DNA of 64,000 bases from Klebsormidium nitens (GCA_000708835.1 DF237316.1:1-64000), one strand, 5' to 3'. Positions 8,780 through 48,639 are shown, numbered from the stretch's first letter. Notes: a model not told the origin generated them from the sequence alone. Program-made: numbers and translations.

Positions 8780-9135
8780 TATTTCCCACCACCCCTAGTT
8801 GGTGGCTGTGGAAAGCTTACATGCAGGCTCCAAACGAAACAACTTTGTCAGTCTTAGGGCTTGCACGCTGCATCTCTTATCCATATTGAACTTCATGACC
8901 GCCATTTAAGGCCCAATACGAAGTGGTGGCCAAACAAGAAAGGCAGGCTGTCAAGCTCACACGGCGCTGGCTGGCTACGCTGCATTCCTGCTAGAGCTAT
9001 TGCCAATTGCTAACCATCTACAAGAAGCCCTCCTTTAGCTGCCTGGTTCTTTCACCATCCATTTTTGCGGTTTGGAAAAGAAGCAGCATGTGGAGCCATG
9101 CTGAGGAAGACGCGTTGTCCAGCGCCCATCTTGAG

Positions 9136-9673: not shown

Positions 9674-10371
9674 ATCTTGAGACGCGAGGGATCTGCGTTC
9701 GAAGTCGTTGCCAGCTGGATGGTGGCACTGGCAGTTGCTGCATCTGTTGCGCCTGTGCACACTGCACATCAGTTTCGTGCGTGAAAATGCTCTATTAATT
9801 GAATATCTATTGATATCTTTAATTTACCGAGGACTTGGAGGAAGCTCTTGTCGAAACGAAGGAATCTTGGTAAGTGGAACTTGAAACCCACCAAGAATTT
9901 GTAACGTAGGTACCTATCTAGTGCAAAATTGGTCAAGCAAAAGCCTGTTCAAATCGATCAATCCGACGGTTCGATTATCGAACTGCCTGGTGGCTTCAAC
10001 GTCCTCGAGATTCATAAAAGCTGGAGCAGAACAAATGGGGGGAGCGTTGTGACCCTGAACGAACCCCCACCTTCCTGAACTCGATGAGTCAGCAGTTTCG
10101 TTTTGCCACGCGGCGTCGTTTAGGCACATCGCAAACCAGAATGGAATCCATTCAACGGTCGCGATACGCTCAAGTTTGCAACTCTGCAAGGGCGCGCACC
10201 CCAGTTTTGCTCTAGCTTGGGGCCCTGCTTGGCGTCGTGGCTGGTTTCAAATTCCTGGATCGATTTGGGAGTCCTGAGCTTTCCAAGCACAAGCAAGCGC
10301 AATTGAGGACAGGGGCGCCCGCTCAGATCCAATTTGATTTGGCAAGGGGGCGTGAGGTTTTGGGTTCGAGG

Positions 10372-23636: not shown

Positions 23637-24428
23637 TGTGCTGGTTTTCTTGCTCGTGCCGCTGACCTGTCTTTTGATGCAACATGCAGCTGTGAGTCTG
23701 CCTAGTTGACTGGGGTTTCTAAAGAAGGTTCCAAAACGCATCCGTTTGCAGAGAAATGAGAGAATTGTAGTTTAAAGGGGCAAAATGATCAGAGAGCTAA
23801 GCATCGATCTGGTTTAGTGATGGAATGCTGAGAACAGCTCCTGATTGGTACACTAGGCATCTGAAGTGACGTCTAAGTTTATCTTCAACTTCAAGCTTCA
23901 AGTTCAAGAATCAAGACCGCTTCTGGAGAAGCCCTGTGCTCGTTTCAGACAAGCGAGGAAACTGCGTCTCTAAGCGTTCGTAGTCTTACGGTACTAAGAA
24001 CTTAGAAGCTTGTGCGCGGCATATGCGGGCCTACCAAATGAAGTTCACCATAAAAACGACGGCGCGATGGGCGCCCGCGCGATCATCGTGCGATCCGACG
24101 GTCCAGAAGCTCGGAAAGCTCCAGTGACGGCCACTGACTGATAACGGTATCGCAGAGGATTCTGCCAGCTGTCCCCCCGCCGCGAAGTCGGGCGATACGA
24201 TAATTACGAACATCGAATCGAAACGGTACTTAGGGACAAGGCACCGGTCAGAATAATCAAGAAACCCGACCGAGTTGCCACCCACTGCGCAGTGCATAGG
24301 CTTACGGACAGGCAACCCACGGAATAAGTACGAACAGGGCCAAAAGGTCGACCGCCGAATTTGTGGAGGCAACCCCTTAGCGGGTAATGAGGTTGGTGAA
24401 AAGGGCTTGGTAAACCCCGAATTTTAAG

Positions 24429-27400
24429 ATGGTACTTGCCATTGAGTCCAGCAGTTCGAGTCGTATTGCAAGCGGGCAAAACTATGTAGATTTTGCAAGC
24501 TGCCATGACAGGGTGGCATCACTCTGCTACACTTGCAAGCAGCAAATCTGGACTAAGGAGCCTAGCAGCGGTGCACTGAGGCTCAGCTTTCGGAAGCATA
24601 GCACATTCAAGGGCTACCTGGTCAGTGCCAGCGTGCCTAAGAGCAAGCAGGTAAAACAGCTTCTGTGCCTCAGCTGTGTTGCCCGGCATTTAGGCTCAGT
24701 CGGAGACAGCGCAGATGGCCTTTCACTGCTGCTCACAGACAGAGGCCCAGGCTTGCAAGATGCAGTGCTTTTTCACTACATTGTCCGGCCGGTTGTCAAA
24801 AAGCGCACTACGATTTGCCCGGGGCCCGCAAGATACGGGGCTGTTCATCCAGCGGGGCCACGTCAAATGTACGGAATTGAACTGGCCAATGAAACAGGGG
24901 TGGTACATATACCACGTGGGTTGGTATAGGACCGCCGGTCCCGTCAGGCTGTGAGTCCCCGGTCACTAATTCAGCGTAACATCGCCTGCAGACACAGCCA
25001 ATTCAGCTGCCCGGTGACTTTTATGGTACTACTAGCCTAGGTAGCACCTACTACGAGCCTAGGTANNNNNNNNNNNNNNNNNNNNTTAAAGTGCGCTTTT
25101 TGACAACGGGATGGTCAATGTAGTGTTTCAGCGGGAGAGGTCAGGCGCATGGCTCCAGAGGTTGCAGCTCACGGACCAGCTGCTGGAAGAGGCCGCGGCG
25201 GCCAATGAGGGCGGTAGAAAAAGGAAGAACCCTAAAAAATCCGCAGCTGAGAGCTCTGGCCGGGGCATGCAGGCAGGCAAGAGACCGCGGGCAGCGCCGG
25301 TGAGCTGGTGATTATTTTCTTCTTAGATCCTATGAATATTTGCAATGCATCAGATCTCTTCCAACAGTTGCGTCAGGCCGGCCAGATTCTGCTGGACTCA
25401 TTGCCTTGCGTGCGCCCATTCAAAGAAAGGAAACACGCGTTCTGATTACATGCTCTTCATGGAATTCATTATTGCTCGCCACCCAAAAGGCTCTTTGTTG
25501 GACAAGATTCTACAGGCAGTCTTGACCTGCTCGTTCCGCTCAGATTTTGAGCATGGTGTGATGCTGATATCTGAGGCTGGTCAGGAGGTGTATCTGAAGG
25601 ACTTGGTCGGCGCTTGCAGGCACTCGAAGGCGGGGCCCCCGGCATTGCCGGCCAAGCCACTCTCTTCATCAGTGGTGTACTAGATGGCGCGTGCCGCGTG
25701 CTGCTGCCGGCGGGGCAAGACCCTGAGGGCCCGCTCCTCGGCAGGCTCTACCTGACGGCGTGGGATCACAACCGCGCAAAGCCGAAGCCGCTTGGAAAGC
25801 CTTGCAAAGAGAAGGCACTGCTGCAGGAATGCTGGTGGGATTCGCAGGGGCGGCTCAATTGCACATGCCACCGCGGCAGGCTGGCTCTGGATGCGCCATG
25901 CGTACACAAGCTGGTCTTGGCGTCCCCCTGCACGGACTTCATCGCCAGCAGCGGCTTGCCGACCGCGAAGGACCTGAGTAGTGGGGCTCACGTGGTCGAG
26001 CAATTGGGGGAGGACCCAAGCGGGGCCTTCTACGCCGTCAGGAACAGCCCGAAGGGAGTGAGCCCGGAGCACAGAATGCTCCACCGGACCACGGCTGGAG
26101 CCTGGTACTGTGAGGGCAAACTCAGCGGCTGTCCTGCGCAAGAATGCTCTCACATCACGGCGGCCAAGGCTGCCCTAGCTGCGGGAAGGGTGCAGCACTC
26201 TGAGGGCATCCTTCTCGGGCCGGACGCCCTAAGTACGGCAGCTCACTGGATAGAGGACTGGGAGGGTGAGTTGCCGTTGCTGGGCGAGCCGGGCGAGCAA
26301 AGGGTGCGAGGGGCAGGGTGCGCAATCGAGCGAGGGGCAACGGGTGAGGAGGCGGGACTGCTGGGACTGATTGCCGGGCAGAAGCAGGGGGCGGCAGAGT
26401 GCCTGGGCATCAATTGCTTTTGTCTGGAACACCTGGTTCTTTTCGGAGAGGCGCGACCGGCATCGGAGGCTGGTGATTTAGATGGGGCCCTGGAAACGTC
26501 GAGCACCAGCGTCGAGCCTTGGAAGCGGGCGCCGAGGGGTTCGAAGTACTGGGCGGAACACCGGGGCGAGCTGCGAAGCGCCGCGCCCCGCAGTGCTGCA
26601 GGAGAGCCGGCGGAGGACGCGCGGGGCGAGGATGCGATCCAAGGCTGGGTGCCAGCTTGCCACAGCTGCAAGCTGAGCGAGACGCGGCAAGGGGGGTGCA
26701 GGCATGCGGAGGCGGGGCGCGTGCAAGTGCCAGTCATGCTGCTGGGGACGGAGGCCCTCCAGATCACGAAGCCGAAGCTGGGCAAGCTCGCCGATGCCCT
26801 CGTTCACCACGATCCATGGATCAGCTCCCTTAAAGGGGGCCTCGTCCGCGTCAGCAAGCTGCGAGACTGCCACTTTCGAGAGCTCAGCCAGATGGGGATG
26901 CTCAGGGCCGCGTGCCCGATTCAGCCTCCCCCCTGCGGCGGCAAGTGGGTGGAGCACGTGAAGGCGGCCGTTATACACGCCTCCACCTGGTCAGAGCGGG
27001 TGCTAACGACAATCTACTGCTGCCAGTGCACCAGCAAAGCGCACACGGTGCACTTCTGTGGGGAGCACCTCGGCCTCTACTGCTGGACGGCGGGGACCAT
27101 CCTGGTCCAGGAGAGCCTGCAGCTCATCCTCAAGGGGATGCAGCGCTCCGGGTCGGCCTTCTCCGCCGAGCTGGCGAGGGACCAGGAGGCGTTCGCCCGC
27201 TCCCCCGAGTCGGTCGTTTTATCGGACGAGAGCTGGCGCAGGGCGAGCTTGGACTTCTTCAAGCTAGTGGGCAGGCAGATCCTCGAGTGCTGTTCTATCT
27301 GCGGCGTGCATCCGGAGGTGAGCACTTCTTGCAGCGTGGTCTCACCTCTCGTACGGTCGCCGTTCTTTGAGGAATGAGCGATCCGCCGACGAACGCCCGT

Positions 27401-30400
27401 AGCGAATCGATATCCATATTCAAATCACCTTCGTTGAATTCGTCGGCCAACGTAAGTCGGGTCACGCGCTGCCTTGCCGCATCCATGCTGTGGTGCATTC
27501 TTCAAGGATTTAAACGCTCCAATATTTCCGCACTGCTTTTTAGGCGTCGGCAAACCCGTCATCAGAATCAGGCTACAGATTTATTGAATGTTGATTTTGT
27601 ACAAGATGAAGTTTGAACACGGGGTTTACAGGGTGGTTTTCGAAATCATACGTTCGGTATTGTAGAAGAGGGCTCAGCCCTCTCCTTCATTCAATTTCCC
27701 CAAACTTTCAAGGTGCTTTTGAAAGCTGGTGACTTTTCGGTTTTGAACTCATGCAGGTGCTCCTGGCGGACGGAATAGTCGGCGTGGCGAATAGCGACGG
27801 AGGCAAACGCCCCGGAGGCCTTGGCAACACGTCCTTGGACTGCAGGCGGACGTTCGTCCACCCCAGCCAGCACTCGAGCGGCGAGGCGCTGGAGAAGCAG
27901 TCGATCAGCGGGCGCGACTACTGCGCCGCGAGCCTCGAAGGCGGCGGAATGAAGCGAAGGCTCGTTCTGCAGCCGGAGCTCCGCGACCTGCTTGCGCGTC
28001 TCTCGCAGCACAGGCCGACCTCCGAAAGGCTTGGGCAACGGCTCAGCGAGGCGGAGTACCCGCTTCTCAAGGCAGCGCTCGCTCGGGAGGACGTGAAGGA
28101 GGTGGTGCGTTTCAGCCAGGTCGAGGGTGAACCGGGCAGGCTGCCGATCTTGGCCAGGCGGCGGCTGCTGGACGAGCAGGTTCAGATGGTTCGGGAGAAG
28201 AATCTCGCCGTGCTGCGGCTGCTTTGGGGCATCGAGGCGGACCTAGAGGCGCGAGGGGGCAGCCCCCGCATCTGGGAGCACTCGCCGGGCGAATGGGGCG
28301 AACTGCTCTACGATCTGGGCGCGCACGATGCGGACTGCGGGATCATCGGGACATCAGGCGGCCTCTCGGTCGTCCGCAGGCTGCTGCTGGGGTACGCGGC
28401 CACGGTGGAGGACTGCAGGCTGCTCGGGGCCGGCTCGCCGATCCTGCGGTNNNNNNNNNNNNNNNNNNNNGACTGCAGGCTGCGTCGGGGCCGGCCGTCC
28501 GCCGGACTCCTCGCGGTGGTGCTGGACGCCTACGGCGGCGGCTGCTTCCCGGCCTTCTCGCGCCGGCCCTCCACCATCTGTACATTCTGACCGCGCTGGC
28601 TCGGGGCTGCACCGGCTTCGGGGACGAGCATCGAGACGGCTGGGTGATAGCCGCGCTCAGGCCGCTCAATCACGCCGTCGAGCTCTTGCGGATCCAGGCG
28701 GAGCGGGGCGCGCTGGACGGGCAGGAGACGCGACTTTTGGCGGACGCTCGCGGCCTCGCGGACCGGTTGCTGCCCGGGGTGGAGGCGCTGAGGCCGAGCC
28801 CGGCTCAATGGGCGGCGATGAGCGGGGTTGAGCGAGAGCTCTTATGGGAACGGCTCGGACGTGATGAGGAGGGCCACCAGATGCACCCGCTCCCGCCGGG
28901 GCACGGCTTCCGGGCGGAGCTTGATGCGCTTGGGCATTACGCGTTGCCGGGGTGGGAGCAGAAGCGCGGTCTGCCGCATTACGTCACATTCGAGCACGCC
29001 AACGGGAAGAGTCGGACGGGGGAGGAATTCAAGTGCAATTCGGGGCAGACGGAGACCGAATGGGACGCCGCAAACGTGCCCGGGCTGACGCGGGGAGGCG
29101 GAAAGGGGAAGAAGGCGAAGCGGCCGCACAAGAGCAGAGGCGCCATGGTGGTCTGCTGCCCCCATCGGGTCATCTACGGCTTCCACGTGATGCTGAGAGG
29201 CGAAAGTCCAAGGGACGTCTTCACCGTGCTTTTCACGCGGCTGAACCGGGAGCACCTCCCCAAATTCGTCGTCTACGACAACGCCTGCGCCCTGCGCAAC
29301 TACTGCATGAGGCGCGAGCCCGCGTTTTTCGCCGAGATCACATTCGTCGTGGACAGGTGAGCGTCGAACCGANNNNNNNNNNNNNNNNNNNNNNNNNNNN
29401 NNNNNNNNNNNNNNNNNNNNNNNNNNNNNNNNNNNNNNNNNNNNNNNNNNNNNNNNNNNNNNNNNNNNNNNNNNNNNNNNNNNNNNNNNNNNNNNNNNNN
29501 NNNNNNNNNNNNNNNNNNNNNNNNNNNNNNNNNNNNNNNNNNNNNNNNNNNNNNNNNNNNNNNNNNNNNNNNNNNNNNNNNNNNNNNNNNNNNNNNNNNN
29601 NNNNNNNNNNNNNNNNNNNNNNNNNNNNNNNNNNNNNNNNNNNNNNNNNNNNNNNNNNNNNNNNNNNNNNNNNNNNNNNNNNNNNNNNNNNNNNNNNNNN
29701 NNNNNNNNNNNNNNNNNNNNNNNNNNNNNNNNNNNNNNNNNNNNNNNNNNNNNNNNNNNNNNNNNNNNNNNNNNNNNNNNNNNNNNNNNNNNNNNNNNNN
29801 NNNNNNNNNNNNNNNNNNNNNNNNNNNNNNNNNNNNNNNNNNNNNNNNNNNNNNNNNNNNNNNNNNNNNNNNNNNNNNNNNNNNNNNNNNNNNNNNNNNN
29901 NNNNNNNNNNNNNNNNNNNNNNNNNNNNNNNNNNNNNNNNNNNNNNNNNNNNNNNNNNNNNNNNNNNNNNNNNNNNNNNNNNNNNNNNNNNNNNNNNNNN
30001 NNNNNNNNNNNNNNNNNNNNNNNNNNNNNNNNAACCGATAGGAAACGTTTCCCTTTCGTCATCATCGTCGATGGCGTCTCGCAACTTTGACACCGTTGTA
30101 CGAAATGGTCAACAGTCAAAACCTGCATCCTATTAGATATATATAAGTCGTTATAGATTGCAAGAATTGACTGTTCTCCAAGGGCATGCCGAGGGCGCAA
30201 TGGCCCCCTTGCTGCCTCCGCGTTATCTCAATCGCGAACTTGCAAGCGCCTTCTGGCCCGTTAATATGTGCATTCACTGTGCAACACGGCTTGAAGGTGC
30301 GAGGACGTAGCAAAAGTCGCTGCGATGTTGGTGCAGGTTTCACTACGCCAAGGCGGGTGCGGAGGTTCACAAGTGCGGGCCCTCCAACGCCACCGACTTC

Positions 30401-30634
30401 TACGATCTGCTTCGGTGGGTCAACACCTCGGCGGTGGAGTCCGTGAACAGCTTCTTGAAGAGGTTTAGGACGCTGGGCTGGTACTCGGGGCTGGAGAGCT
30501 TCATGATCTTCCTGTCCATCCTCCTCAGCGGCTATAACGTCGATCTCAGGCGGGTAGACGATGCGAAGCTGAGGGTGACGGTGCCGGCAGGGCAATGGAG
30601 TGAGATAGTCAGGAGGCTGCTGTTAGGAGGGTGA
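24429..30634 (+). CDS. KDZ (Kyakuja-Dileera-Zisupton) transposase with Zn fingers; exons 24429-25299 (interrupted at 24774-25125), 25620-27317, 27757-29356, 30337-30634
   Basis: SWIM-like CTC...CVH and C...CSH motifs, a Cys cluster, and CSICGVHPEVLLADG (first catalytic D). Also VVCCPHRVIYGFHVMLRGESPRD, VYDNACAL (second D), VDR|FH across a phase-2 intron, and NTSAVESVNSFL (catalytic E). Sequence gaps at 28450-28470 and 29373-30032. Confidence 0.85.
24774..25125. mobile_element. CACTA (En/Spm)-type non-autonomous insertion with 3-bp TSD TTT
   Basis: Begins CACTACATTG...ggttgtcaaaaagcgcact and ends agtgcgctttttgacaacgg...CAATGTAGTG. ttt at 24771-24773 and 25126-25128. It contains a 20-N gap, so its true length is uncertain. 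Confidence 0.85.
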
Positions 30635-30673
30635 TCGGTTCGCTACCTTTGGAATGCAAAACGGTCCTGAAAC

Positions 30674-30716
30674 ACGATTGTATCAGATTGTATCAGATTG
30701 TATCAGATTGTATCAC
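30674..30716 (+). repeat. 10-bp tandem repeat (GATTGTATCA)x4
   Basis: Read directly. The TGTATCA/TGATAC core recurs near 30845, 30865, 30945-30965 and 31155. Confidence 0.85.
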
Positions 30717-31175
30717 GTTCCAAACGGTGCGGAATGTGGATTGAATGAATGCCATTTTCTCACTCGCATGCATTGCAATTGGGGGGGGATGGACAAAAAT
30801 GGAGAGGCCAGGCTCGTCGCGTCACAAACGGGTGGAAAATGATCCTGATACATTGATGCGCTTGATACAGTCTTCACAAGTTCTCTATATATATACAAAA
30901 AAACACCCTCTCTTTTTTCAAAATATATATTATACTTTACCCTTGTATCTTGTATCATTTGTATCAGCTTCGTGATGGCCTTTCTTCCTCTAATTCCACC
31001 TCTTTCCCCCATTTGCTTTTGTGTCCTCTAAAGAAATTCCTAGTATCATTCTAAATATTGCTATCATCGCGGCCGTTCTCGGGTGACGAGAGACGTTTGG
31101 GGAACCGCTCACTACCTGATACAGCTTTTATGGCAGGGCCAAAAACGCGTATCAGTTGTATCACCTCCCAGCGAG

Positions 31176-34100
31176 TTACCTGGATTCTCGAGGACCCCAA
31201 CAATCTTCTAATGAAGGCTGGATTCGACACGATTCGGCCACCGGCGGTTCCGAGTTGCCGTCTTCGTCCTCCCGAAGTTCGTCATCGGTCTTGAGCCGGA
31301 TTCCGAAGAAGCCAGCTGATCTGCGTCGCGAACCATCGACCATCGGGATCATTCGATTTACGCCTGTGAATGGGTGTTGATAGATGTTCTTCGCTTTCAT
31401 TGCCTGTGTTAGGATTCCGTCGTTGGCCATCGCTCTATCGTGTCCTAAACTCATCAAGAATGCGGCGTAGGCCGCCGTGATTTCGACTTTGGTGATCTTG
31501 TACTCCCTCCCCAGCTTGCAGAAACCGGAAACTCACGCACCCAACTGATCGTTCTCGGTCGTATATTTGGTGATAGCTGCGCTGAAAATCTGCGGGATTG
31601 GTTTCAGAGCCGGTGCGCTCGGATTTGCCGCCTTACGTGCGTAGTACATCATTGCTCCTTCCACGCAGAAATCTAGGGTGTCGGCAGCGCCCTCGTCCGA
31701 CTCCATGTAGTTCTTCAGGTTGGTGTCGATAAGCCTGTGCAGTGGATTATTCGCGTCGATCTGGTCCTCGCTTCTGAAAAGCTTGTTGAACATCATCAGG
31801 AGGAGGCGCCGAATCATGCCCTCATCGTTGGCGGGGAACAATGGCCGGTAATTCGTCAGCATGCATAGCTTGAAACGCGGCACATAGTTCTCCGTCTTGC
31901 AGAACAACTGGCGAGCATTGATCCCGCCTCCACCGGTTAATTCCTTCAAAGAGCCGCAGTTGAGATGCTCTTCTTGTTCGCTCTCGTCCATGATCACGAG
32001 GCGAGCTGCCTTTATGTGCATCAGGTGGGACGACGCGGCCGATGCGCTCTGGCTAAAGGCTGGTTTGATGAATATGGCCTTTGCACCGGTGGTGCAATAC
32101 GTGCCGAATGCCTTTTGCAGTGCGATTTTCAGCTGCGTTTTTCCGTTTCCTCCGCAGCCATTCAAGATTGAAAGGAGCTCTTCACAGGTCTCGCCCGTGA
32201 GGCAATACCCAAAGAACATTTGGACCCACTCGATGATGCTTTCGTCCAGGACCGAGATCATGAAACCCCGGAATTTCGCTGTGGGGGCTCTGCTTGCCCC
32301 TCGCACGTACGTGAAGGTTTGGTTGTTGCACAGATCCTTCGGATGGTGCTTCGAAAGCTGCCCGGTCTTCAGATCGATCAACCCGTTTGGTGCATTGGCC
32401 ACGCAAGGATCCTAATCGAACTTATCCGTGAGTTGGGCCACGAACAGTTCAGTGATCGTCGAATGCAGACACTTAGCCACTTGGACCGGATCTTGGACGT
32501 TGATTTTGAAGGGGGGCATATCCCTCTCGCTTTGATCCATGCAAGATTTCGTGGCAGACTTTATCATGGGTTTCCGCTTCTCGGGAACCGAATCCAAGTC
32601 CACTTCGCGCGTCTCTTGGTTCCAAAAGGGTGCTAAAACAGGGTGCTCCGATAGCAGCTTCCTCTCATGGTCGTCTCGCTTCATCTCGTACCAAGTCATC
32701 AAAATCCCCATCTGCGATGTGAACACGTTTGAGACGAGATTGTAAGTGTCTTGGATCCAAGAGGAGCCGTTCCATACGTAGAAAACCGCCGCTCCTTTCT
32801 GTGACTTTTCTGCTTCGTGCACGGTGGTAAGGATTCGGCCTTCAATCATGTATAAATATGCAAAGAGCTTGCCCAAGTTGGCAAAAGCTCCAGGTACGGC
32901 ATTGGCAAGTACGATCTGAAGCAGCAAATTCCGGGTCTCTTGAGACCCCTTGATGTGCCTCATAATTACCTGCATGTCGTCGTATTGATCGACCGGATCG
33001 CTGGTGGCATCCTCAAGAGCTGCTTCTAGGCTCAATTGGCCGAGCTTCCTCACCGGCTCGTGGGAACATTGGTCACCGTGGCAGCGGTAGTAGACATTCC
33101 GCCCGCGCTTCAGCAGGTTGAAATTATTGCTGCCTTGATGTTCGCGGCCGAAGAAGCACGTCCTAGGCCCGGTCGTCCGGAAGCAGTAATACGTACCGTA
33201 TAGACCGTGCTGGAGCGAGCTCGCATACGTGCTTGACGAATCCTTCGCCTTCTCCTTCAGCATCTTCTGAAGCTCTCGCACGAGCAGACCATCCTGCGCC
33301 AATGGCACATGTGTCGCACCCCCTGTGACCGGCTCGACCGGTCTGGCCGGCTGGACCGGCTCATCTTCTGAGGCTGGATTCTGGTCAACTTCGCCACCGC
33401 TGTCGACAGCGCGGGGCAGTGGGGCACATTCCGAGGCGGCGATCGAAGGCCCCGCACCAGCTGAGCCTCGATTGATAGTATCGACAAGCCAGCTTGGCAT
33501 TGCCTGTGGGATTCCGTCGCCCTCAGGTGCCCAGGAGTAGCCTCGAGATTCGCCGTGCTGCCCCAGATATCGAGCAGGTGGGGCAAAGCAGAGACCTCCG
33601 ATGCCTCTGCCATCGATACCGTAGTCCTTGCCTTCGACGACCAGCCCTGCAAAGTTGTTAGTTCTATTCAGGCCGACCGTTGCGGTGATGTCGAAGTAAT
33701 AGTGGTAACCCCCACTGCCGGTGACGACCTTCAATGTTGCAGGCTCACCGTGCTGGCTTGTTAGCTTGTTCCAAATTTCAATACCGGAGCGTTTTATCTT
33801 ACCGTCCGACTTGATACTGCTTGCAACGTCGACGTCGACGCAAAACAGCTTACTTGGCTCTGTCATTACAGCAAGGCCGTTACACTTCTTGGACGACCTG
33901 AGGACGCTCCCGATTTTGGCTTTCCACTTGTCCACCGTTGCCAGCTGACCCCAGGGAAGTGAGAATTTCGGATCTTTTTTACCGCTCGCTTTCAAGGTGA
34001 TGGTCACTGGTACACAATAGATTTCGTGCGTGCTCAGGCGCATGATCTCCGAGCTGACGTCCTTGGGGTCTAGGGCCGACGGCCTCACGTCGGATCGAGC

Positions 34101-34268
34101 GCCCGGGGTCAAACCGTCGGGGTATTGTTGAGGAGCCTGGAGGCCTGACGCTGACAAGGTGGCGGCAGTCTCAGAGGAGTTGCTGGTGTTCATGGCGCTG
34201 AGCATGTTATACTCTAAGGTTCTGTTAGGAAAAAAATAAGCGTCAGAAAAACGCACGTACGCGGACAA
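31176..34268 (-). pseudogene. Intronless virus-like prim-pol + D5-like SF3 helicase, ~1030 codons, with two in-frame stops (TAG 32412-32414, TGA 31533-31535)
   Basis: Prim-pol motifs GLAVMT...FCVDVD...TGSGGYHYYF...IDGRGIGG; Zn region YRCHGDQC; D5_N (FD*DPCVANAPNGLIDLKTG); Walker A GCGGNGKT; Walker B LVIMDE; TNYRP. ORFs 32412-34268, 31533-32402 and 31176-31457 share one frame. Confidence 0.85.
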
Positions 34269-34304
34269 CCCTCGAATATTTTCTCAAGTGAGACTACGAC
34301 TGAA

Positions 34305-34637
34305 ATGTCAGACACACTTAACAACCTACCCAAGAAAGGCACTTACGCCGACGAGGTGTTTACCTGTGAGTGCCGCCATTGCTTGACGGCACGAAAATAC
34401 AAACTGCGGAATCCGGATGCTCAAAACCGTTCTATGGCCGAATACTATCAGCGAAACAAAGATACCCTCCTCATTGATCAAGCATGGCTGCGATACAAGC
34501 GAGGGGTGAATCTTCACTTCAAGACCCTTACGAAACTCAAACAAGCTGGCTTCCCCGTAGAAATGACCGCTGGTGCGCCAGCCTCTCAGCCTACAGAGAA
34601 TGATCTGATGCATTTCGTTGCAGTCGAAGCCGCTTAG
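34305..34637 (+). CDS. Small basic protein (110 aa) with a CxCxxC motif, virus-like hypothetical
   Basis: Intronless ATG ORF packed between the primase and recombinase genes. Its stop overlaps the restored recombinase stop at 34634-34637. Confidence 0.55.
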   Translation: MSDTLNNLPKKGTYADEVFTCECRHCLTARKYKLRNPDAQNRSMAEYYQRNKDTLLIDQAWLRYKRGVNLHFKTLTKLKQAGFPVEMTAGAPASQPTENDLMHFVAVEAA

Positions 34638-35690
34638 CCCTTTGGTTTCCTTTCGTACGATCGCATCTGTGTGGTGACTGAATGGAGCATCCTAGACGCC
34701 ACATATTGCCTATCCGCTAGCGAGGCGTCGTTCTGGTACCGGTCTGTCAGGAAAATTGTGCCGCAAGTGGTTGATTGTCAGATGTCGCCCATCAGTGAAT
34801 GGAATCTCGCGAATGAATTGGGTTAGGTACTCGTCGTTCATAGGGTCGCCAAGGTTGCTCAGCAACGTCAGGAAAAACGCTCGAGGTACGAGCTCGATCG
34901 AGCGCTTGATGTAACACGAGAGTCGCTTCGGCATCTCGAACCGCTGCTCCCCGTACTGCTTTGCTGTTTTGAACGACTTTAGCACGAGTACGTAAGTCTC
35001 GGTGTCTCTAGACTCCTTCAAAACGTTTCCGTACTCATCGAACATGTCCTTTGCGGCCTGATTGTGAAAGCTGCCGTCCGCTTTCTGCAACGGGAGGTCG
35101 GACCAATCGCGCCGCTTAGGCGGTTCGAGAACGTTGGCAGCCAGAAGTAGGTGTTGGAAGACCACCTTCACCTCCTCTCGATTCAGGCGCCGCCCGCTCC
35201 CTCGAAACTCTGGCAGGATCTGACGCCTTATGCGCCGTCCCAACTCTTCCATTTTGTCCTTGATCTCCTGCATCGTGATCCAATTGTCCAACTCTTTTTT
35301 GGTGGCCTTTTGGGAGCCCGCGTTTCTCATCTGTTCAGCCTTTGCCAGCAAAAAGCACACGTAGTACTTCCTGTGAGTCTCCTGCCACCCGTTCTGGCGA
35401 GAGAGGGCCATAAGAGGGGTCAGCTTGTTGCACAGTGACCCTTTGCTTGGGTAGTGCTTTTGGATGACCTCGATAACCCGATCTACGCTGTCTTTGATCC
35501 ACTCTAGGTCATCCGGCAGGGAATCGCCCGAACCCAGAAGGCGATGGACCGCATTTAAAGACTTGACATACTGAGCACAGGTGCTCTCAGCCCTGCCCTC
35601 TCCCTCCAGCAATTTTGCATGGCACATGGCCGAGCCGCAGCGCACGATCCTTACGTCATCATCCACGGCTGCTTCCTGCGAGGATGTCAT
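34634..35690 (-). pseudogene. Tyrosine recombinase/integrase of virophage/Polinton-like-virus type, with a 1-nt frameshift near 34751-34755
   Basis: PPKRRD (R), SFKTAKQYG (K) and INHLRH (HxxR). The shifted frame reads LTDRYQNDASLADRQYVASRMLHSVTTQMRSYERKPKG*, which supplies the H and the catalytic Y. Confidence 0.78.
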
Positions 35691-36708
35691 TTAGATATAC
35701 TGAGGAAGTATTCCCAGAATACCACGAGTTCAAAACGACGTCCCCCTGACCATCATAACCCCTTCGAAAGCAATTCCAAGGGAGTCGGGTCGTGTTTTTA
35801 GGAGGGGCACGGACACCAACATCCACTGATTCGGAGAAAAGTGCACTAGGTCGGGATTTAAAAACGCGGTATTTTCTGAAAATACCGATCCAGGGATTCT
35901 AGCTGATAAGGGGGCATGTTCGCATTTAATACTGCTTTCGGCCTGACGATTGGTCGGGAACTGGGCATGATTCTAAGAGGTTCGAGACATTTACTTGGAG
36001 TGCGTCCGGGGGGAGGTCATTTTCTTTGAGCCCTGCTGCATTTTTTTTCATTGCATTTGACAACGATATGGAAGAGCAACCTCTTGACGAAGGTAAAGAC
36101 CGGCGTTCGTTTCGGGTTCTCAAAGCTCTTGACATGAAGTGCACTGATCAAAGCAATAGGCTGGATGGAGCTCGGCTGGAGATCGACGCCGAGAAGGGCA
36201 GAGTAGTCCAAGCGGGCTCAAGAGCAGGATCTTCTCTTTTTCGACTGCTCAAGGCAGATTCCCGTAAGTCCGCAACCCTTCCCTACGCATGCAGCATTCT
36301 CCTACAGGAAACGACGAGAAGCAGCAAGCATAAGCAGTTCGCATACTCTGTCTCTCTTTGCGCATTACCTGAAATAGAAGGCCTGAGGGAATGCAGTTTC
36401 AGGGAAGTTACCGAACAACGGCAACGAAGCTGACGTTGGAGGCATTTGATGCCTTGCTGCAGAAATCAACGGGGAGTTTGAAAAAACAAAGCGTGACAGC
36501 GGCGGCCCTCATGGGTAAAAACCCAAGGCGTTCCAAACCTACGAAGAAGACTCAAACATTGGGGTCTACTCCTTAAGCTCCGATGACCAGTAATTTTACT
36601 TAGGGAAATATTCACGAACTGTCGAATCAACCCGTAAGGCTTGACACAGCAACGGCGCACGCTTCGATGCGTGAAAAAACGGACTACTTTCCTTAAACTT
36701 CTTAAAAG

Positions 36709-37185
36709 CTAGCCTCTCGCGCTGGCTGCGAGCCGGTTGTTGGCCTTACACTTGGCGGGGTTCGCCAGGAGGTCGAGCATGAGGTCATCGGCCGTGAGGT
36801 ATCTCAGTTCGGCGATTTGTGCTTCCATCGAAATCTCATGCTGCGTGCGCACTTTGTCGCATGCTTTCCTGCTCTTGCTATGTTGCTCCGAACGTTTTAG
36901 AACAGACCCCCAGTCTACCAACAGATTGTAGGGGTTTTTGCACCGGTGCACGACTATCTCCGCCTTTTGAAGACCACGGCAAACTGCATTGACCATGTCA
37001 CACATCGAGAATGGTGGGAGGGTCCCTCGAATTCCCGAAATCTCCCCCAACGGCAGTACCATGCCGTGCGTGTGCTCCGTTTCGAAAGTCCGTTTAATGC
37101 GGCTGATAGATTTATCAAGACACTCCTGGTAAAACTGTCGGATCTGATTCTTCGTTTTGTTGTGGGCTGCCAATATATCCTGCAT
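36709..37185 (-). CDS. Hypothetical protein (158 aa), possibly related to small conserved giant-virus (NCLDV) proteins
   Basis: Intronless ATG ORF. The pattern FYQECLDKSISRIK...LPPFSM...VCRGLQ...VV...LLVDW recalls an NCLDV hypothetical family; this is from memory and not verified. Confidence 0.45.
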   Translation of the reverse strand: MQDILAAHNKTKNQIRQFYQECLDKSISRIKRTFETEHTHGMVLPLGEISGIRGTLPPFSMCDMVNAVCRGLQKAEIVVHRCKNPYNLLVDWGSVLKRSEQHSKSRKACDKVRTQHEISMEAQIAELRYLTADDLMLDLLANPAKCKANNRLAASARG

Positions 37186-37771
37186 GTTACTCGTCTTAGA
37201 TAGATGTATGAAAATTACAACTCGCTAAACCGTAATCACCTTCAGCACGTTTAGGTTGTTCAGACATTTGCGCAAAATATTTCCACGTAGCAAAGAGTCA
37301 AATCTGCCACAAAGCAAGGGGGGTATGAGCCATGAAAACGTTTGACAGTGGAGAGTCAAAACTTGCAAATCTTACTTTAGTATATAAGCTATTATCGAGT
37401 GCAAATTTTGACTGATCCGTTCGGCACCATGTAAATCTAAACGGCTCTACTCCAAGCACGGCAGGAGCTTCGTTCAGGCAAGACGGCAACCTCCTTTTAA
37501 AATTTGGGCAAAGGCAGCAGCCTTCTTTAGGACGTTCAGGTTCGTGCGCAAACCATTTTCACGTGGCGAGGGGTCTACGAAAAGACGGCGCCGGTCTCGA
37601 ACGTTTGGCGGCAGCGGCAACTTGCTCTATCAGAATGTTCAGGTTTGTGCGCAGACTATTACCACGTGGCGGAAAAAAAGGGGCCAGTTCAAAACGCATG
37701 CGACATACGTCCATGTTGCGGAAACCTTGAATATTTCCCTTGAATATTTCTGTTGACGAAGGTGCCTTGCC

Positions 37772-37978
37772 ATGAAATCTGTCACCAAGGCAAAGCAGAC
37801 AAAAACCCTTGCACCACTGGCGAAACGCGAGAAGAGTGCGCTGGTCGAAGAGGCTTCGAGGCGATATCAAGAAATGCTCGAATCCGGAGAAGATGAGGAA
37901 TTCAACGTTCTTGTGAAGGAGCATGAAGCGCAGAAAGCCCTTGGCCGGAGAGTCGAGAGTGCCAGGGGGCCGGTCTAG
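37772..37978 (+). CDS. Small charged helical hypothetical protein (68 aa)
   Basis: ATG ORF with protein-like Lys/Glu-rich composition; no recognisable motif. Confidence 0.25.
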   Translation: MKSVTKAKQTKTLAPLAKREKSALVEEASRRYQEMLESGEDEEFNVLVKEHEAQKALGRRVESARGPV

Positions 37979-38350
37979 AACGGCGATAGCCATCTTTGGG
38001 CAAGACGGTCGCCTCGTTCAGATGACGTTCAGATTTGTGCGCAAACAGTTGGCAAGAGAGTCGAGAGCGGGCGGCAGGCTCGTTCAGGATGTTCATGATT
38101 GTGCGCAAATATTTCAACGTGGCGGAACAAAGATGTGCACATAGAAGATCGTGTTCAGGATGTTTAGATATTTGGACAAACATTTTTCAGATGCGATGGA
38201 ACGTTGCAAATTCATGTCGATAGTGAATGACGTGCAAAACAGTAGATGGATATTTACAAGTCGATTTTTGTTGTCGGAAGTTGGACACCTGTCTCCAATC
38301 TATATACAAAGCTGCATCCTCTTAACACTACCTAAAGATCAACTAACGGT

Positions 38351-41300
38351 CTAACTACGTGCATAGACGCTCTTGACCCCCGGATAATACAGCTCCCTCT
38401 TTCCGAAAACGTTGACGGCCTTCCCGCTTCGCTTCAACCCCTTCCCCTCCATGCGCTTCTTCAACGCCTCGGGTTTGATTTCCTCATGCGAGAATTTGTT
38501 GTAGTCGTCGACGAAGTCATGCTCGAGAGTCTCCAGGCCGGTTCCCCGCAGGCAGTGCTTTAGAAAACGCTGCAGCATGTCGCAGTCTTCGAAATAGGCC
38601 CGCGTCGCCTCGACGACCTCCGGCGGAGTCTCGCCGAGGCCCTCATTGTAATACGCAACGGACTCGCGGGCGAGGAGGGAGAGCAACTGCTCTAGGACGT
38701 CGGGGGCTAGCATGCTTTCCTTCAGGCCGGTGTTTGCAAGCCGGTGGTCGGGATTCGATGGGTCGAATCTGTCGGCCGTCACGTAGCTGTTCGGGAATCT
38801 AAAGACTTCGATACGCCTGCGGAAGTTGTCGGCTTTTGGATTGGTCCCCGGGGGCAGCAGGGGGGGGTTGTTGGTCTGGATGAAGGGCATGTGGGTCAGC
38901 GGGAACTCCACGTTTTTGCCGTAGAGGTCTCGGGCGACGATGTCGCCCCCTCCGCACGTCGATAGAACGAGGGCCGCATCCACACACTGAGCTTCGTCCG
39001 TCTCGTCAGATATGACCATGCGCTTGTCCTTCAAGGCGAAGAGGTAGTGGGTTGGCGAGCCCTTCGAGGCAGGCCGCTGTCCAGGGGTTTTGACGACCGC
39101 GTCCGTGGACATGGTGCCGTAGTAGGGGCCAAAGGCGGCCTTGATCATCTCCTTCCACACCCCCTTCCCATCCCTGCAACGCATTACGAATCTTTGACTA
39201 CCTTCTTTTTCGATTAAATCTGATTTTGTAAAGAAGAAGGACATTGAACATCCATATTGCATAGGAAGTGAAGGCCACTAACAGAACTGCACAACGGTCC
39301 TCTCCTTGTCTCCTGTAAATACTCTGCGCATAAGTCCAAACATCCTGAAGGGCCATTGACAGGACTCCACAACGGTTATTTTTCTCGGCTCCTGGAAATA
39401 CTTTGCACACAAGCTCAAACATCCTGAACAACCTCAGGCTGGCTCACCTCCGAGCCCGATGAGAAAGAAGATCTTCTCCTCGCGCGTCATGCCATTTGCT
39501 GCGTAAGCAAACACGCGCAGATACCGCTGGATGAGCGGCTTGTTGGCGTTGAAGATGTCCTCCAAGAACTCCACGGGGGCCGGCGAGGCATGCTCCAGTC
39601 CCTGCCAAAACGGTGGTAAAAACTTAGAAAGTCGACACCCACTTGAATGATCGTGGAACGTTTGCAATGAAGGGGGGGGGGGGAGGTTGAGTTAATGGGA
39701 AGAGAAGCGAGGAGCTCACCATGTAGCGCAGATCGATCATGCGAGTGCACATGTGCTGCGGCCGGTGGGCGTCCAGAGCGCCCGTCTCCAGCTGCCAGAT
39801 GCCGTTGCGGCAGTTGATGATGTGGACGTCCTTATCCAGGAGCGCAAAGAGGTCAAGCGCATACATCTCGCCCTGCATGACCTCCATCGTGCTCTTGATA
39901 GCCGACGAGTTGTTGTAAATCTTGACGCCTTTGATGATTTCTTCCAGTCTCTGAGCCTTCTTCTTGTCCGTCTCGTCTTTCGCCTCCTTCTGCAACCGTT
40001 CGCGTACTCGATCGTACACCCTGCTGAGCTAGTGCATCATGACGAACCGGACGTATGCGCCGGTGGGATCCTCCTCGTAGCACGTCCGTTCCAGAAGTAC
40101 CACTTCTTGTAGAAGAACAGTCTGCGTAGTAGAAAAGAGAGACTATATATGCCCGCCGGTGTATCAGAAAGTTTGGCCAAAAAAAATGAACGTAATAAAC
40201 ATGCCTTTCAAAAATATACAGCCGTTTGGATGTTGGCATCAGTTTGCAGCCCAGATTCGACGGCAACCAGCGTCTCAGATACTCTACGCAGAAGCTTTAA
40301 CAACATAAACATGTCGGACCTGCGCACGTACCTGCCGCAGGATGAGTACATCTGGCTGGCAATATGGCTTCCGCCCATGTCCCCCTGGAACGCCCAATGA
40401 TCCACGAAGCGCTTATCCAGGGTCTTATAGACGCTCTCGTCGTCGGCGGAAACGGGGGCCACCTCCCCGCCGAGCATTGCCTCGTACCGGGTAAGCATCC
40501 CGATCTGCTTGAGGGGGCGGATTTCGCAGCACTCGCTGCTGCTGCAGCAGTACAGCAGCGCCCGGCCGCGGACGAGGACGGAGAAGTTGTTCGAGCTGTG
40601 TTGCTGCCCGTACGGGCATTTGCGCTCTCCGTGTGCCCTGTAGACGTACATGTCGCCGGCTGGGTACTTCTTCAGCCTGTCGAAGGTGGATCTGGTATCC
40701 CCTGCTTTTGCGAGGCACACTCGAATCCGCTCCAGAACGGCCGGTTCGGCGTTGCCATCCCTCTCGGTCGGGTCCGGTTCGGCCGTCGGACCCCAGAAGG
40801 GCTCGTGTTTGACGGAGTCCCTGAAATACACACGAGCGTTGAACGGTCGGCGGCAGCTTGAACTATCATGAACGGTTGCACACCTCATACGTCTCTGCGT
40901 TCAAGTGTTCAAGAAATGGCACAAAATATTCTCAACCTCTACAGAAGTGGTACAACGGATGCATCTACTGGGAGGATTCGAAGAGCGCCATGGCATCCCA
41001 GAACAAGCCTCACCTGGCGGCAGCCCCCTCGCCGTTGATGACCGCGATCAGCCAATCGGGCATTGCCTTCAGGTTGGACCGGTCCTTCAGGATCTCTTGG
41101 ATCCACTCATACCGCCGCTCCTCGCCGTCTAGGGCTCTGTAGCAGCTCGGATCGCAGTATATGAGCCCTCCGTCTCCCCGGGTGTCGATTCCCACCTGTT
41201 TTTCTCCACGTGAGACCTTGCCGATTGCCGCCGCTGATCAGACCCGCTTGCGTCGAGGCCGCAAGGGAGAAAAACAGGTGCAGGCCACCCCTTCCCGTTC

Positions 41301-44220
41301 GCTCGCAAGGGGTGTCGTCGGGCAAACTGTCGTTCTCTTCCACCATCTGTCCGAAGGCGACATCTCCGCCACCGGACAAATCGATGTCGACCACGTAGCG
41401 ATCCGATTCCGACCCGGTCATGATTGCTAATGATTTGCGCCCCTGTTTCACGTGCTTCTGCAAGCAGTTGTCCAGACGACACTCCTTCCAGCCGTCGGTG
41501 AAATTTCGCGGCTTTTTGACGCCGTCCTTGTTGACGAAGAGGTCCAAAGTGCACGCAGGGATTGCGAGGCTGTGAAAGTGGCGTGCTGCAGCGACGCATT
41601 TGTCTACGGCTGGCTCCGTTGCCTCTGCTGTCGCCTCCTGCAAAAGCCGGAGACCGATATTACTTTGCCCGAATTCTTGAACATCCTAAACATGCATACG
41701 GCGAAGGCTACCAGACTGGGCACGCATCCAGGTGTTTAAGTTTTCGCCGAAACTATTATGGGATCCTAGCTCAGAGGGCCTACCTCCGACCCGTCGTCAG
41801 TGGCTTCCTCAGTTGCCTCCGGCCGTGGCTCAAGTAGTCCGATCTCCATGCCAGCGTGAGCTGCTGCCCCTGCCGCCACCTGGAAAAGCTGGAGACCAAT
41901 AAAAGTTTGGGCGAATCCATATACATTTTGAACATACGTACGGTGAAGGCCAAGGCTACCAGACTTGGCACGCCTCCAGATGTTTTTGATGTTCATGCTT
42001 TTGCCCAAATTATTATGAGATCCAAGGTCAGTAGGTAGGCTGCCTCTGCTACCGCCACCTGGAAAAGCCGGGGACTGAGATTACTTTGCGCAAATTCCTG
42101 AACACTCTGAAAAAGGACAAGGAAGGCTACTCGGCAACGCATCCGGATGTTTGTGATGTTCATGCTTTTGCCCAAACCGAGGTCAGCCGACCTACCTCCG
42201 ACCTGTCGGGAGTGGCTACCTCAGTTGCCTCCGGCCGTGGCTCTTGATCGATCTCCATACCAGCCTGTGCTGCTTCCCCTGCAGCCGCCACCTGGAAAAG
42301 CCGGAGTCCGGGTTTACTTTGTGCGAATTCCTGAATACTCTAAACGGGACGAGGAAGGCGACTTCGAACGCATCTGGATGTTTACGATGTTTATGCTTTT
42401 GCCCGAAGTATTATGGGATCCTAGATTAGTAGACGTACCTGCGACCTGTCGCGAGTGGCTTCCTCAATTGGCTCCGGCCGTGGGTTTGCTTCGATCTCCA
42501 TACCAGCCTGTACTGCCGCCTCTGCTGCCGCCTCCTAAAAGATGCCGGAGGCCGAGAAAGGCTTGCGCAAATCCATAAACACTAAGATGCTATTAGACTC
42601 GGCAACGCATCGGAATGTTTATGATGTTTATGCTTTTGCCCAAAACTATCACCAGATCCAAGCTCAGTCGACATACCTCTGGATCGTCGCAAGTGGCTTC
42701 CTCGGCTGGCTCCATCCGTGGTTATTGTTTGACACCTTCGCACCATTTGGCAACAGTGGATGCGGTCTTCCACGTGTTCAAGATGTTTGGACTTTTGGAC
42801 AAACTATTTTCATGTGAGCGAAGGAGAAGGGGCAGGCTTTTGATGGAATCTGTCACGGGGGTGCCCCCTCTGGATATTTGATGTCCTTCTTTTCTATATG
42901 ATCATCTTTTTTATTAATAGGAAAAGAAAGACATTAAACATCCATAGTGTTATTGGATCGGAAGGCCATTGACAGAACTCTGGTTCTCTCCTTGGCTCTT
43001 TGAAAGAGTTTGTCCAAAAGCTTAAACACCTTGAACATGAAATCGAGAGGTTTTCTCTCGCCTAAAGTCTTTATGGGTTCCAGAGTGAAAGACCTACCCC
43101 CGAGTTGCAAATGGCTTCCACAGTCGCCGGCTCTTGCGGCATGGTGCCCACTGCCGCTGCCTCCTGGATCAGCCAGAGACCGAGATTAGTTTGCGCAAAT
43201 TCAAACATCCTAAACATAAAGCCTCGGCGGCTGCCGCTGATGTTCATGCTTGTGCGCAAACTGTATATGGGATATTGAATCATATACCAACCTCTGGATC
43301 GTCGCAAGAGGCTTCCTTGGCTGGCTCCGGCCGTGGCTCTTGTTGGATCTCTATACCGGCATGTACTGCTGCCGCCACCTGAAAGAGCCAGAGACTGAGA
43401 GAAGTTTGCGCAATTCCATAAACGTCCTGAACAAGACAAGGCATGCTACCAGGCTGGGCACGCATCTCGATGTTTATGCCGTTTATGCTTTTGCCCAAAA
43501 CTATCACGGGATCCAAGCTCAGTCGACATACCTCTGGATCGTCGCAAGTGGCTTCCTCGGCTGGCTCCGGCCGTGGCTCTTGATCGATCTCCATACTAGC
43601 ATGTACTGCTGCCTCTGCTGTTGCCTCCTGCAAAGTCGAAGACCGAGAGAAGTTTGCGCGAATTCCTGAACACGCTGAACAGGACGAAAAAGGCAACTCG
43701 GCACGCATTCGGATGTCTATGATTTTTTACTTTTGCCCAAAACTATCACGGGATCGAAGTCTGTAAACCTACCTCTCGATCGTTGCAAGTTGCTTTCACA
43801 AGTGACCCCCGGCCTTGCTCATCTTCCATCTCTGCCGGCGGTTGGTGAAAGTTGTCCACCCTCGTGTCCAGCTCCATATCAGTTGCCACTGTCGCTGCCA
43901 CCTGGAAAGTTTTCCAAGAATAGTTTGCGCTAGTTCCTGAACATCTGAACACTGGATGGAAGATTTCTACTGATGTGCATGCATCTTGTGGTGTTCAAGC
44001 TTTTGTCGAAACCTTGTCACAGTGCTAGTGAACTCACCACTTTGCAGGCGGGTTTTGGCCGCTTGCCTTTTTTTGGCATCCTCGTCTTCGTGCGCTTTGT
44101 GCTTTCGTTACTGAGCATGACAGCCTCCAAACTAGTGCTCATGCTACTTACGTATTCCGGAGAAGTTGGCGAGTACAGTGTCTCAGCTCCTGGAGCCATT
44201 TCTGGACTGTGGTTTTCCAT
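38351..44220 (-). pseudogene. Second prim-pol/D5 helicase gene, intron-containing, with an N-terminal array of acidic repeat exons (copy A)
   Basis: First exon 44220-44038, then repeat exons, then prim-pol (LAIMTG...YVVDID...TGRGGLHLFF...IDTRGDGG). Further motifs: CPYGQQHSSNNF, D5_N (LDKDVHIINCRNGIWQLETG), and helicase (DGKGVW, MVISDE, QTNNPP). GT-AG introns lie at about 41000-40832, 40330-40120, 39720-39605 and 39447-39177. There is a frameshift near 41210 and a TAG near 40030; the frame at the last junction is unresolved. Confidence 0.78.
41620..43960 (-). repeat. Tandem array of ~9-10 degenerate exon+intron units (~200-250 bp each), block A
   Basis: On the minus strand each unit reads ttttccag/tgcag | VAAEAAVHAGMEIDQEPRPEATEEATCxxxE | gtaggt/gtatgt/gtacgt. 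Confidence 0.85.
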
Positions 44221-45025
44221 CTCAAAAGGCGGGGTTTCAATGCTAAGAATCGATGTACAACCGTGCTGTATGTTGGAGGGAGCAATGCCGACTACCTTGC
44301 ATCCGCTTGTGCTTTCGCCACTGTTTGGAAGCGCTTGCTAAGCTTTTACAGTCGTGTATCTTGTGCCGATCACTCATAAGCCCTCTTTGAACCTTGCAGC
44401 TTTTAGCAAGACTTTGAACACGAATTGAAACCTTTGCACGAACGTTTGCGCACGGTGGCCATCGACGGCCGTCGCTGCACGATCGGGAAAAGTTTGGTCC
44501 AGACCTTGAACAGTCTGAACATGCTCGATGAAGCCCCAAGATAGCCTAGCCTAGTTCCCTCCGGCGCTACAAATTTGGGTGATGCGGCGGGCGTCGCCGA
44601 TCGGTTGAGCCTAACGTTCGACTTCATATGGTTTGGCCGCATATTCGGGAGGTGGGCGAGTCCTTGGGCCCTGGGGCGCCTATCGAGGGTTTGAAAATAA
44701 GGTCGGTCAACGTGGCAAGGCATTATCGCATACTGTTAGGTCTATGACATTGGCGGGCTGTCAAGCCCAGCAGGAGACGTGTCATCTGTAGTACTTTGAT
44801 CCGGAAAGCAGTACTGATGGGCGTGGCTATGAAGGCTGGTCAAAATACTCATAATGATCAGCCTTCGTTGAAGGGCAAACCATATGCAACCACGTAAAGA
44901 AAAGCAATGAAAATCCACGTACTATCTTCTAGTAGGGGCCATCAGAGTTCAGAACTTCAGCATTCAAACTAAACACAGCAACAAACGTTTGGCTTGCTCT
45001 CAAACGCCACGAATTTCCTTCAAGA

Positions 45026-48000: not shown

Positions 48001-48615
48001 ATATGCCCCCTACCTATTAGAAACGATCAACACGCTTAGCATACGAGTCATGGGCTTTGCAGCATTTTGCATCATGAAGTGTTGCCTCTCGCTTCTTTGT
48101 AGCCGAGCATGGCATTCTAACAAGATATGAATTGTTTGTAGGTGAAAAACTTGGAGAGCCAGTCCGCAACCATGATCGAGTGCGTTCAGAACCACGCCCC
48201 AGAGGTGATCGTTATAGACGAGATTGGACGCAAGAAGGAAGCAGAGGCTGCGCGCACAATCGCCCAGCGTGGCGTGCGCCTCATCGCGAGTGCGCATGGA
48301 AGCCTCGCCAGCCTCGTCTCCAACCCGTTCCTTTCAGAGCTGCTGGGAGGAGTGGACCTCGTGACAGTCGGCGACTCTGCTGCAAATAAGTTATACAACG
48401 GCAGAAAGAACGTCCAACAGCGGAAGCGCGAGTCCATCTTTCAGACGATCATCGAGCTCGCCCCAGAAAGGTTAAGCGAGTGGGCGATCTTCGATGACGT
48501 TGAGACGAAAGTCGATAAGATTCTTAAGGGAGAGCCCTTCGAAGCAGAGATTAGAGTTTTAGACACTCAGACGGGGACGATCATGGTAGGACGAGAGATA
48601 CGTGTTCACCAATGA
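45026..48615 (+). CDS. Fusion protein: winged-helix (LOTUS/OST-HTH-like) N-terminus, DEDDy 3'-5' exonuclease (EXD1/Egalitarian-like) and ycf45/SpoIIIAA-like AAA ATPase; exons 45026-46246, 46799-47623, 48142-48615
   Basis: ExoI IAIDCEG, ExoII IHDCRQDSDAL, FDTQ, ExoIII YAAQD; DNRAG...LHRISA...GLTYRVGRA; Walker A GPPMTGKTT; VDTSNEIAG; QNHAPEVIVIDEIG; ASAHG. Both introns are phase 0 and GT-AG, and no disablements were seen. Confidence 0.85.
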
Positions 48616-48639
48616 TTTGACCCCCGCAATTGTCTAGAT

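Follow-up and report, generated by a model that had tools for sequence, protein, structure and literature searches.

A stretch of Klebsormidium nitens DNA (GCA_000708835.1 DF237316.1:1-64000, hereafter the window, covering 64 kb of a 92.6-kb scaffold) contains, within positions 31176-37185, a module of four intronless open reading frames (ORFs) encoding a primase-helicase, a small protein of 110 amino acids (aa), a tyrosine recombinase and a 158-aa protein. We read this module as the dead chromosomal copy of a capsid-less integrating replicon, the 'end module' of Polinton-like viruses (PLVs) standing alone, and consider that this reading has an even chance of being right; the parent element may have been a small DNA parasite spreading without virus particles. 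An earlier note on this DNA had suggested a capsid-less or reduced viral replicon. The PLV-type recombinase and the failure to find a capsid gene are in agreement with that suggestion, but the present copy is a non-working cluster of pseudogenes, with two in-frame stops in the helicase gene and a frameshift in the recombinase gene that the earlier reading had missed. Translation of the helicase ends ahead of the motor domain, and the recombinase is left without the catalytic Tyr; this copy is therefore incapable of replicating or moving by itself, unless the lesions are assembly errors. The unit extends at most over ~30635-37240, that is, ~6.6 kb.

Analysis of the helicase gene revealed the domain order Prim-Pol / Cys-His cluster / D5_N / superfamily 3 (SF3) helicase. 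Pfam recognized Prim-Pol (3.9e-13) and D5_N (1.6e-8), with DUF5906 (1.5e-4) below cut-off, and the motifs VDVD, GGYH, GxGGNGKT, VIMDE and LTN were present, so that the prim-pol/D5 identity first assigned to the gene holds. The Cys-His cluster (residues 350-380) presumably resembles the PrimPol/UL52 zinc finger, a likeness unconfirmed by Pfam and PDB searches. Intact relatives covered the gene in one frame from 34205 to 31218 (tblastn), in line with the packed intronless ORFs described before. The single frame of 1,009 codons is broken by a TAG at codon 598 and a TGA at codon 891, positions occupied in the aligned relatives by Gln (in 9 of 13 sequences) and by Phe (in 8 of 9), respectively; the helicase shares 85% identity with P0020, a relative without such breaks, hence intact. 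A reassigned genetic code was ruled out as the source of these stops, given that the two codons differ, that the relatives mostly show Gln or Phe there and that a frameshift exists besides.

In a search limited to proteins of 554-1766 aa, 17 of the 24 helicase matches showed 40-100% identity and comprised eight K. nitens models, the window's own included, and nine environmental proteins, whereas the remaining seven showed 23-28% identity over at most 42% of the query. K. nitens carries seven further helicase paralogs, namely KFL_008160020, KFL_010060020, KFL_008280020, KFL_008790040, KFL_002280180, KFL_014030030 and KFL_012860020. The NCBI model KFL_003670050, 100% identical to the window sequence, joins recombinase and helicase across the breaks; this gene model is probably wrong and the fusion an annotation artefact. 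One environmental relative, P0029, has an N-terminal part like the window helicase and a C-terminal part like the divergent P0031/P0033 subfamily, and judged from its sequence it is possibly a recombinant between helicase subfamilies.

With regard to affinity, the helicase passed the TIGR01613 model of P4-family primases (136.6 bits, cut-off 108.7), and with the profile of its family four phage helicases reached 1e-44 to 1e-47, compared with 1e-10 for the best of the few PLV-like helicases sampled. Phage and plasmid matches were confined to the helicase half, covering up to 48% of the protein at 23-29% identity, and a PDB profile search gave a single match, C962R, a primase of the giant-virus phylum (E 2e-10). 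In a tree of 22 rows the family formed a separate clade (support 86/65) that grouped with a second helicase of the window (97/94), apart from the phages; this tree held one PLV-like row and no D5 protein of nucleocytoplasmic large DNA viruses (NCLDVs), lacked the rows L002 and L003, dropped for weak scores, and brings long branches together. The structure model of the helicase, with a predicted local distance difference test score (pLDDT) of 34, was too poor for structure search. The PLV/virophage affinity claimed for the module is borne out by the recombinase and, more weakly, by the small ORF; the helicase domain in this sample leans to phage P4-type relatives, and for this reason the unit looks mosaic.

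The recombinase gene is interrupted by a frame shift at ~34753-34756, directly past its HLRH motif. The last His and the catalytic Tyr fall in the resulting out-of-frame tail of 40 aa, which shares 76-92% identity with intact relatives. The family alignment showed conserved R, K, R, H and Y columns, with Asn in place of the HxxR His, and the structure model of the intact relative P0003 (pLDDT 88) matched Cre. The Cre-like fold together with the R-K-(H)xxR-H-Y residues identifies the family as tyrosine recombinases, as had been recognized from the DNA, although Pfam, PHROG and NCBIfam gave it no name. The P0003 model also matched recombinase-like proteins of giant viruses and a virophage (Foldseek). 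All 18 matches of the recombinase showed 48-82% identity, a profile search retrieved 2,042 proteins, and the nearest Atlas clusters were Preplasmiviricota (0.98); no phage match was found. With more distant recombinase relatives as query, 28 loci were retrieved from IMG/VR. In 16 of these loci an ORF fell into a single capsid cluster, and Pfam assigned all seven members tested to the Sputnik type. A profile of these 28 viral recombinases matched the window recombinase at 8e-25, and hhalign to the protein of locus L025 gave 97%. By these sequence comparisons the recombinase is of virophage/PLV type. Its near family formed a separate long-branched clade (100 in the Shimodaira-Hasegawa-like approximate likelihood-ratio test, SH-aLRT) in a quick tree built without bootstrap, the backbone of which is unresolved. 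One recombinase cluster has 20 members and sizes of 111-350 aa among the 15 listed, as expected if many copies decay.

Directly downstream of the helicase stop we found 13 GTATC/GATAC motifs within 490 bp, four of which form a (GATTGTATCA)x4 array. They surround an AT-rich tract at ~30886-30951 (79% AT, the third highest in the window), which is flanked by minus-strand motifs at 30847 and 30864 and plus-strand motifs at 30945, 30952 and 30961. Of the 19 matches of the heptamer TGTATCA in the window, 10 fall inside this region, with 4.2 expected in the whole window; as a control for post hoc motif choice, one hexamer reached nine copies in the origin tile, and no hexamer of any kind exceeded six copies in another of the 241 tiles. 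This layout of GTATC repeats and AT tract below the helicase is a new observation. The origins of Staphylococcus aureus pathogenicity islands (SaPIs) are described as sets of 6-12 iterons, each of five or six nucleotides, that follow rep immediately and face in opposite directions around an AT-rich region (PMC9371898). The module likewise has at least two short repeats on each side of the tract, in opposite orientation and downstream of the helicase, and by this likeness of layout the region is likely a replication origin. The iteron pair was absent from all 34 retrieved loci, which belong to distant relatives.

By analogy, in an intact copy the helicase would attach to the GTATC repeats through its C-terminal domain, open up the AT-rich tract and lay down primers; bulk copying would fall to a borrowed polymerase, either host nuclear or from a giant virus. 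Following PLV and SaPI precedent, the recombinase would be responsible for releasing the unit in circular form and for its re-insertion; circle excision and integration are stated for PLV recombinases in PMC12220804, which also mentions Crypton transposons.

The coordinates are collected in Table 1. The divergent starts are separated by 99 bp, below the 100 bp noted earlier, and the spacer is presumably a shared promoter. The convergent stops do overlap, TAA at 34634-36 (minus strand) with TAG at 34635-37 (plus strand), when translation of the recombinase is followed into the frame of its tail; a plain ORF finder ends the recombinase at 34710 and leaves an apparent 72-bp gap to the small ORF. 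Tight packing describes the divergent and convergent gene block but not the loose 35691-36708 stretch, whose short ORFs had no Pfam, PHROG or NCBIfam match. Base composition does not single out the module (GC 0.518 vs 0.516 for positions 1-18000), and CpG, GC and third-codon-position GC (GC3) fail to distinguish it from host genes.

Table 1. Positions of the module, its candidate origin and the elements around it in the window
Feature	Position	Strand	Basis or remark
Candidate replication origin	30676..31163		GTATC/GATAC motifs and AT-rich tract
Helicase gene, 1,009 codons	31176..34205	-	Pfam, motifs, intact relative P0020
Spacer between divergent starts, 99 bp	34206..34304		ORF coordinates
Small ORF, 110 aa, CxCxxC motif	34305..34637	+	ORF translation
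Tyrosine recombinase, virophage/PLV type by sequence, frameshifted	34634..35690	-	tblastn with intact relatives, matching in two frames
Spacer with short unclassified ORFs (e.g. 36068-36433, +)	35691..36708		Possibly decayed genes
158-aa ORF, intact	36709..37185	-	72%-identical relative P0228
Second prim-pol/D5 helicase gene, GT-AG introns	38351..41700	-	Pfam, tblastn
Probable enclosing transposon, 34.7 kb	24019..58705		Terminal inverted repeats, 6-bp flanking duplication, KDZ-like transposase

The small ORF described earlier as Cys-bearing is present, but it has just three Cys, all in its single CxCxxC motif. It gave no credible Pfam or PHROG match, and two of its three best Atlas clusters (0.90-0.91) are Preplasmiviricota; a small DNA-binding regulator is the most likely identity, as a guess. 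The 158-aa ORF had one match, P0228, identical at 72% over the full length and from a cluster of three, as well as a DUF5759 match (E 0.008) below cut-off. Environmental contigs of equal size carry several of these families: the helicase P0020, the recombinase piece P0045 and the 158-aa relative P0228 come from contigs of 12,284 bp, P0029, P0202 and P0230 from contigs of 18,624 bp, and P0002 and P0229 from contigs of 75,568 bp. In a divergent subfamily, the helicases P0031 and P0224 occur with the recombinases P0061 and P0199 on contigs of 12,208 and 48,212 bp. These matching sizes in bp, circumstantial as they are, indicate that helicase, recombinase and 158-aa gene form one travelling unit. 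Stand-alone copies of the module, which the earlier note had proposed to look for, were not found: for the near family there was no relative in IMG/VR viral contigs (four of four scans), in metagenome contigs (two scans) or in a pattern scan of 185,579 prokaryote genomes, and locus scans gave none with P0037 and one weak, unrelated-looking locus with the second helicase.

Neither Pfam (22+7+30 queries) nor profiles from viral loci detected a capsid, penton, packaging ATPase or PolB gene in the window, as the earlier note had also reported for capsid, packaging ATPase and PolB, and profiles of 33 ORF clusters from the 28 viral loci matched just the window recombinase and prim-pol. Among PLV hallmarks, the module has the virophage/PLV-type recombinase and the primase-SF3 helicase, the latter scoring closer to phage; the double jelly-roll major capsid, penton and A32-type ATPase were not found in the window, and the unit shows neither terminal inverted repeats nor a size of 15-30 kb. 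The att-like ends expected for it were not detected in 30500-38400, and no repeat longer than 9 bp is common to both end zones, so that insertion by its own recombinase, which the earlier note had proposed, is at most a possibility. Judged by the capsid genes and terminal repeats that define a PLV, this copy does not count as one, though it works like the replication-integration arm of one.

Several observations weigh against a capsid-less replicon. The term capsid-less is based on one decayed copy, and the capsid profiles derive from distant viruses, so that a divergent or decayed capsid could escape them. The linkage of the genes was deduced from equal sizes of environmental contigs, not from sequence, and the empty IMG/VR scans are weak evidence since the two metagenome scans were likewise empty. 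Neither att sites nor paired terminal repeats mark the ends. At the candidate origin, four of the 13 repeats are a single tandem array, the motif was picked after the data had been seen, and the GTATC/AT-rich tract could instead be part of the adjoining KDZ gene, at its 3' end. Finally, PMC10120064 (Table S5) reports at least seven K. nitens contigs with PLV capsid genes, of 12,919-60,623 bp, about equal to the number of helicase paralogs.

This last point also speaks for a possible but less probable alternative, in which the module is the surviving replication-integration end of a 15-25 kb PLV whose capsid arm was deleted, or overwritten at ~37.2 kb by the element of the second helicase. The order repeat-helicase-recombinase is that of PLV end modules (PMC11296320), the distant recombinase relatives lie in capsid-coding contigs, with the Sputnik-type cluster in those 16 of 28 loci, and the right end of the module is undefined, repeats of the second element starting ~60 bp past the 158-aa ORF. 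Nevertheless, no capsid remnant was detected in the window, the recombinase clade sits on a long branch outside the sampled capsid-linked clade, and the module's contig between N gaps, of 24,109 bp, matches in size none of the capsid contigs listed in PMC10120064. Were the module such a stump and nothing more, it would simply add to the decayed endogenous viruses already known in this genome.

That the module is a piece of an endogenized giant virus (Nucleocytoviricota) with accessory primase-helicase and recombinase appears improbable. Among the best Foldseek matches of the recombinase model are Hokovirus, Tetraselmis virus 1 and Aureococcus, Pyramimonas and Heterosigma viruses, C962R is the sole PDB profile match of the helicase, and the 158-aa ORF weakly matches DUF5759, which we take to be linked to giant viruses. 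NCLDV core genes are present in K. nitens and are tabulated under K. flaccidum, with the D5 column blank or its symbol dropped (PMC5294986). However, the 64-kb window holds no other NCLDV core gene (PolB, major capsid protein, A32, VLTF3), the Atlas neighbours of recombinase and small ORF are Preplasmiviricota, and the neighbours of the module are a transposase and genes that contain introns. Bacterial phage or plasmid DNA, whether transferred or mis-assembled, is largely refuted and very improbable. It would account for the TIGR01613 pass and the strong phage scores, but the phage and plasmid matches are partial and distant, the recombinase has no phage match, the scanned prokaryote genomes hold no relative, the alga has seven helicase paralogs and the sequence running on from the module is of eukaryote type and bears introns. 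No close bacterial source turned up.

The earlier suggestion of nesting in a larger element was supported by a 63-bp inverted repeat (84%; 24014-24075 and 58648-58710) and by TGCGCG on both flanks of 24019..58705, a 6-bp, partly palindromic duplication found at 0.8% of random position pairs. A KDZ-like transposase lies at ~25575-30634 on the plus strand (KDZ E 1.2e-4, CxC4 E 0.07, both below cut-off), and the whole is tentatively a probable KDZ-type transposon enclosing the module. The KDZ assignment is tentative because the duplication has 6 bp vs the 7-8 bp given for fungal KDZ elements in PMC12730594. Besides the two helicase elements, its cargo includes a 3'-5' exonuclease gene at 44936-46375 (Pfam 2.6e-17) and a SpoIIIAA-like ATPase gene at 46730-48615. 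To the left of the module lie host genes, among them one for a plastid ATP/ADP transporter.

The second helicase, 26-44% identical to relatives of the first and with an apparent frameshift near 41200, is a virus-type replication gene with acquired spliceosomal introns that groups with the first family in the tree. A dispersed family of ~240-bp repeats (41600-58100, 17-31 copies of the core) represents an amplified exon-intron unit located upstream of the gene. Many copies contain, on the minus strand, a 96-nt exon for an acidic peptide with an acceptor before it and a GTAGG/GTATG donor exactly after. The intron part has an inverted motif shared with the second helicase introns and with 37243-38200, for which introner-like or protein-binding sites are suggested as alternatives. 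A decayed second copy of the 3' part of this gene lies at 49331-49971 (68-76% DNA identity to 38076-39502). Between both helicase elements, an Ala/Glu/Lys-rich 68-aa ORF (37772-37978, plus strand) had no credible family match. Elsewhere in the window, a 36-bp inverted repeat (89%; 24774-24809/25090-25125, 280 bp apart across an N gap) is perhaps a small inserted element, and a 61-bp one between two host genes (84%; 9118-9178/9631-9691) perhaps a miniature inverted-repeat transposable element (MITE).

Returning to the capsid-less replicon, a broader generalization is held more tentatively: Klebsormidium-type algae may host a family of ~6.6-kb capsid-less integrating replicons, a eukaryotic counterpart of SaPIs and integrative plasmids, consisting of a lone PLV end module with an iteron origin read by the primase-helicase and a virophage-type recombinase, and possibly spread by giant viruses or PLVs. 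PLV surveys detect elements through capsid genes (PMC10120064), and a free-standing replication-integration unit would therefore be missed. Our literature search, with most subscription journals and Repbase outside its scope, found no published description of this Klebsormidium element and none joining Klebsormidium, primase, helicase and tyrosine recombinase.

The module resembles transpovirons and Cryptons in being a small capsid-less eukaryotic DNA element, and Cryptons also use a tyrosine recombinase. Transpovirons carry an SF1 helicase but are not known to encode a recombinase, and a primase-helicase is not known from Cryptons; by these descriptions the module differs from both. With SaPIs and phage satellites (pri-rep-ori; PMC9371898) it shares a fused primase-helicase, 5-6-bp repeats directly downstream, their opposite orientation around an AT-rich tract, and an integrase. 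Unlike them, it lies in a eukaryotic chromosome and has a virophage-type recombinase, and the likeness is a design analogy only. The closest published concept is the PLV/virophage end module, arranged as repeat - primase-helicase - tyrosine recombinase in, for example, AHEV_PLV2, CBEV_PLV1 and Gezel-14T; end modules are proposed to move between PLVs and the adjacent repeats to serve as origin (PMC11296320). This proposal becomes directly testable with the present family, which offers a defined iteron candidate as well as the intact relatives P0020 and P0003. The module has the same gene pair in the same order beside a repeat tract, a recombinase of the same broad family and the Prim-pol/helicase domain order of L025. 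It differs in that no capsid, penton, ATPase or terminal inverted repeat was found in it, in having short iterons instead of a long repeat, in the separate clades of its recombinase and helicase, and in its host, a streptophyte alga.

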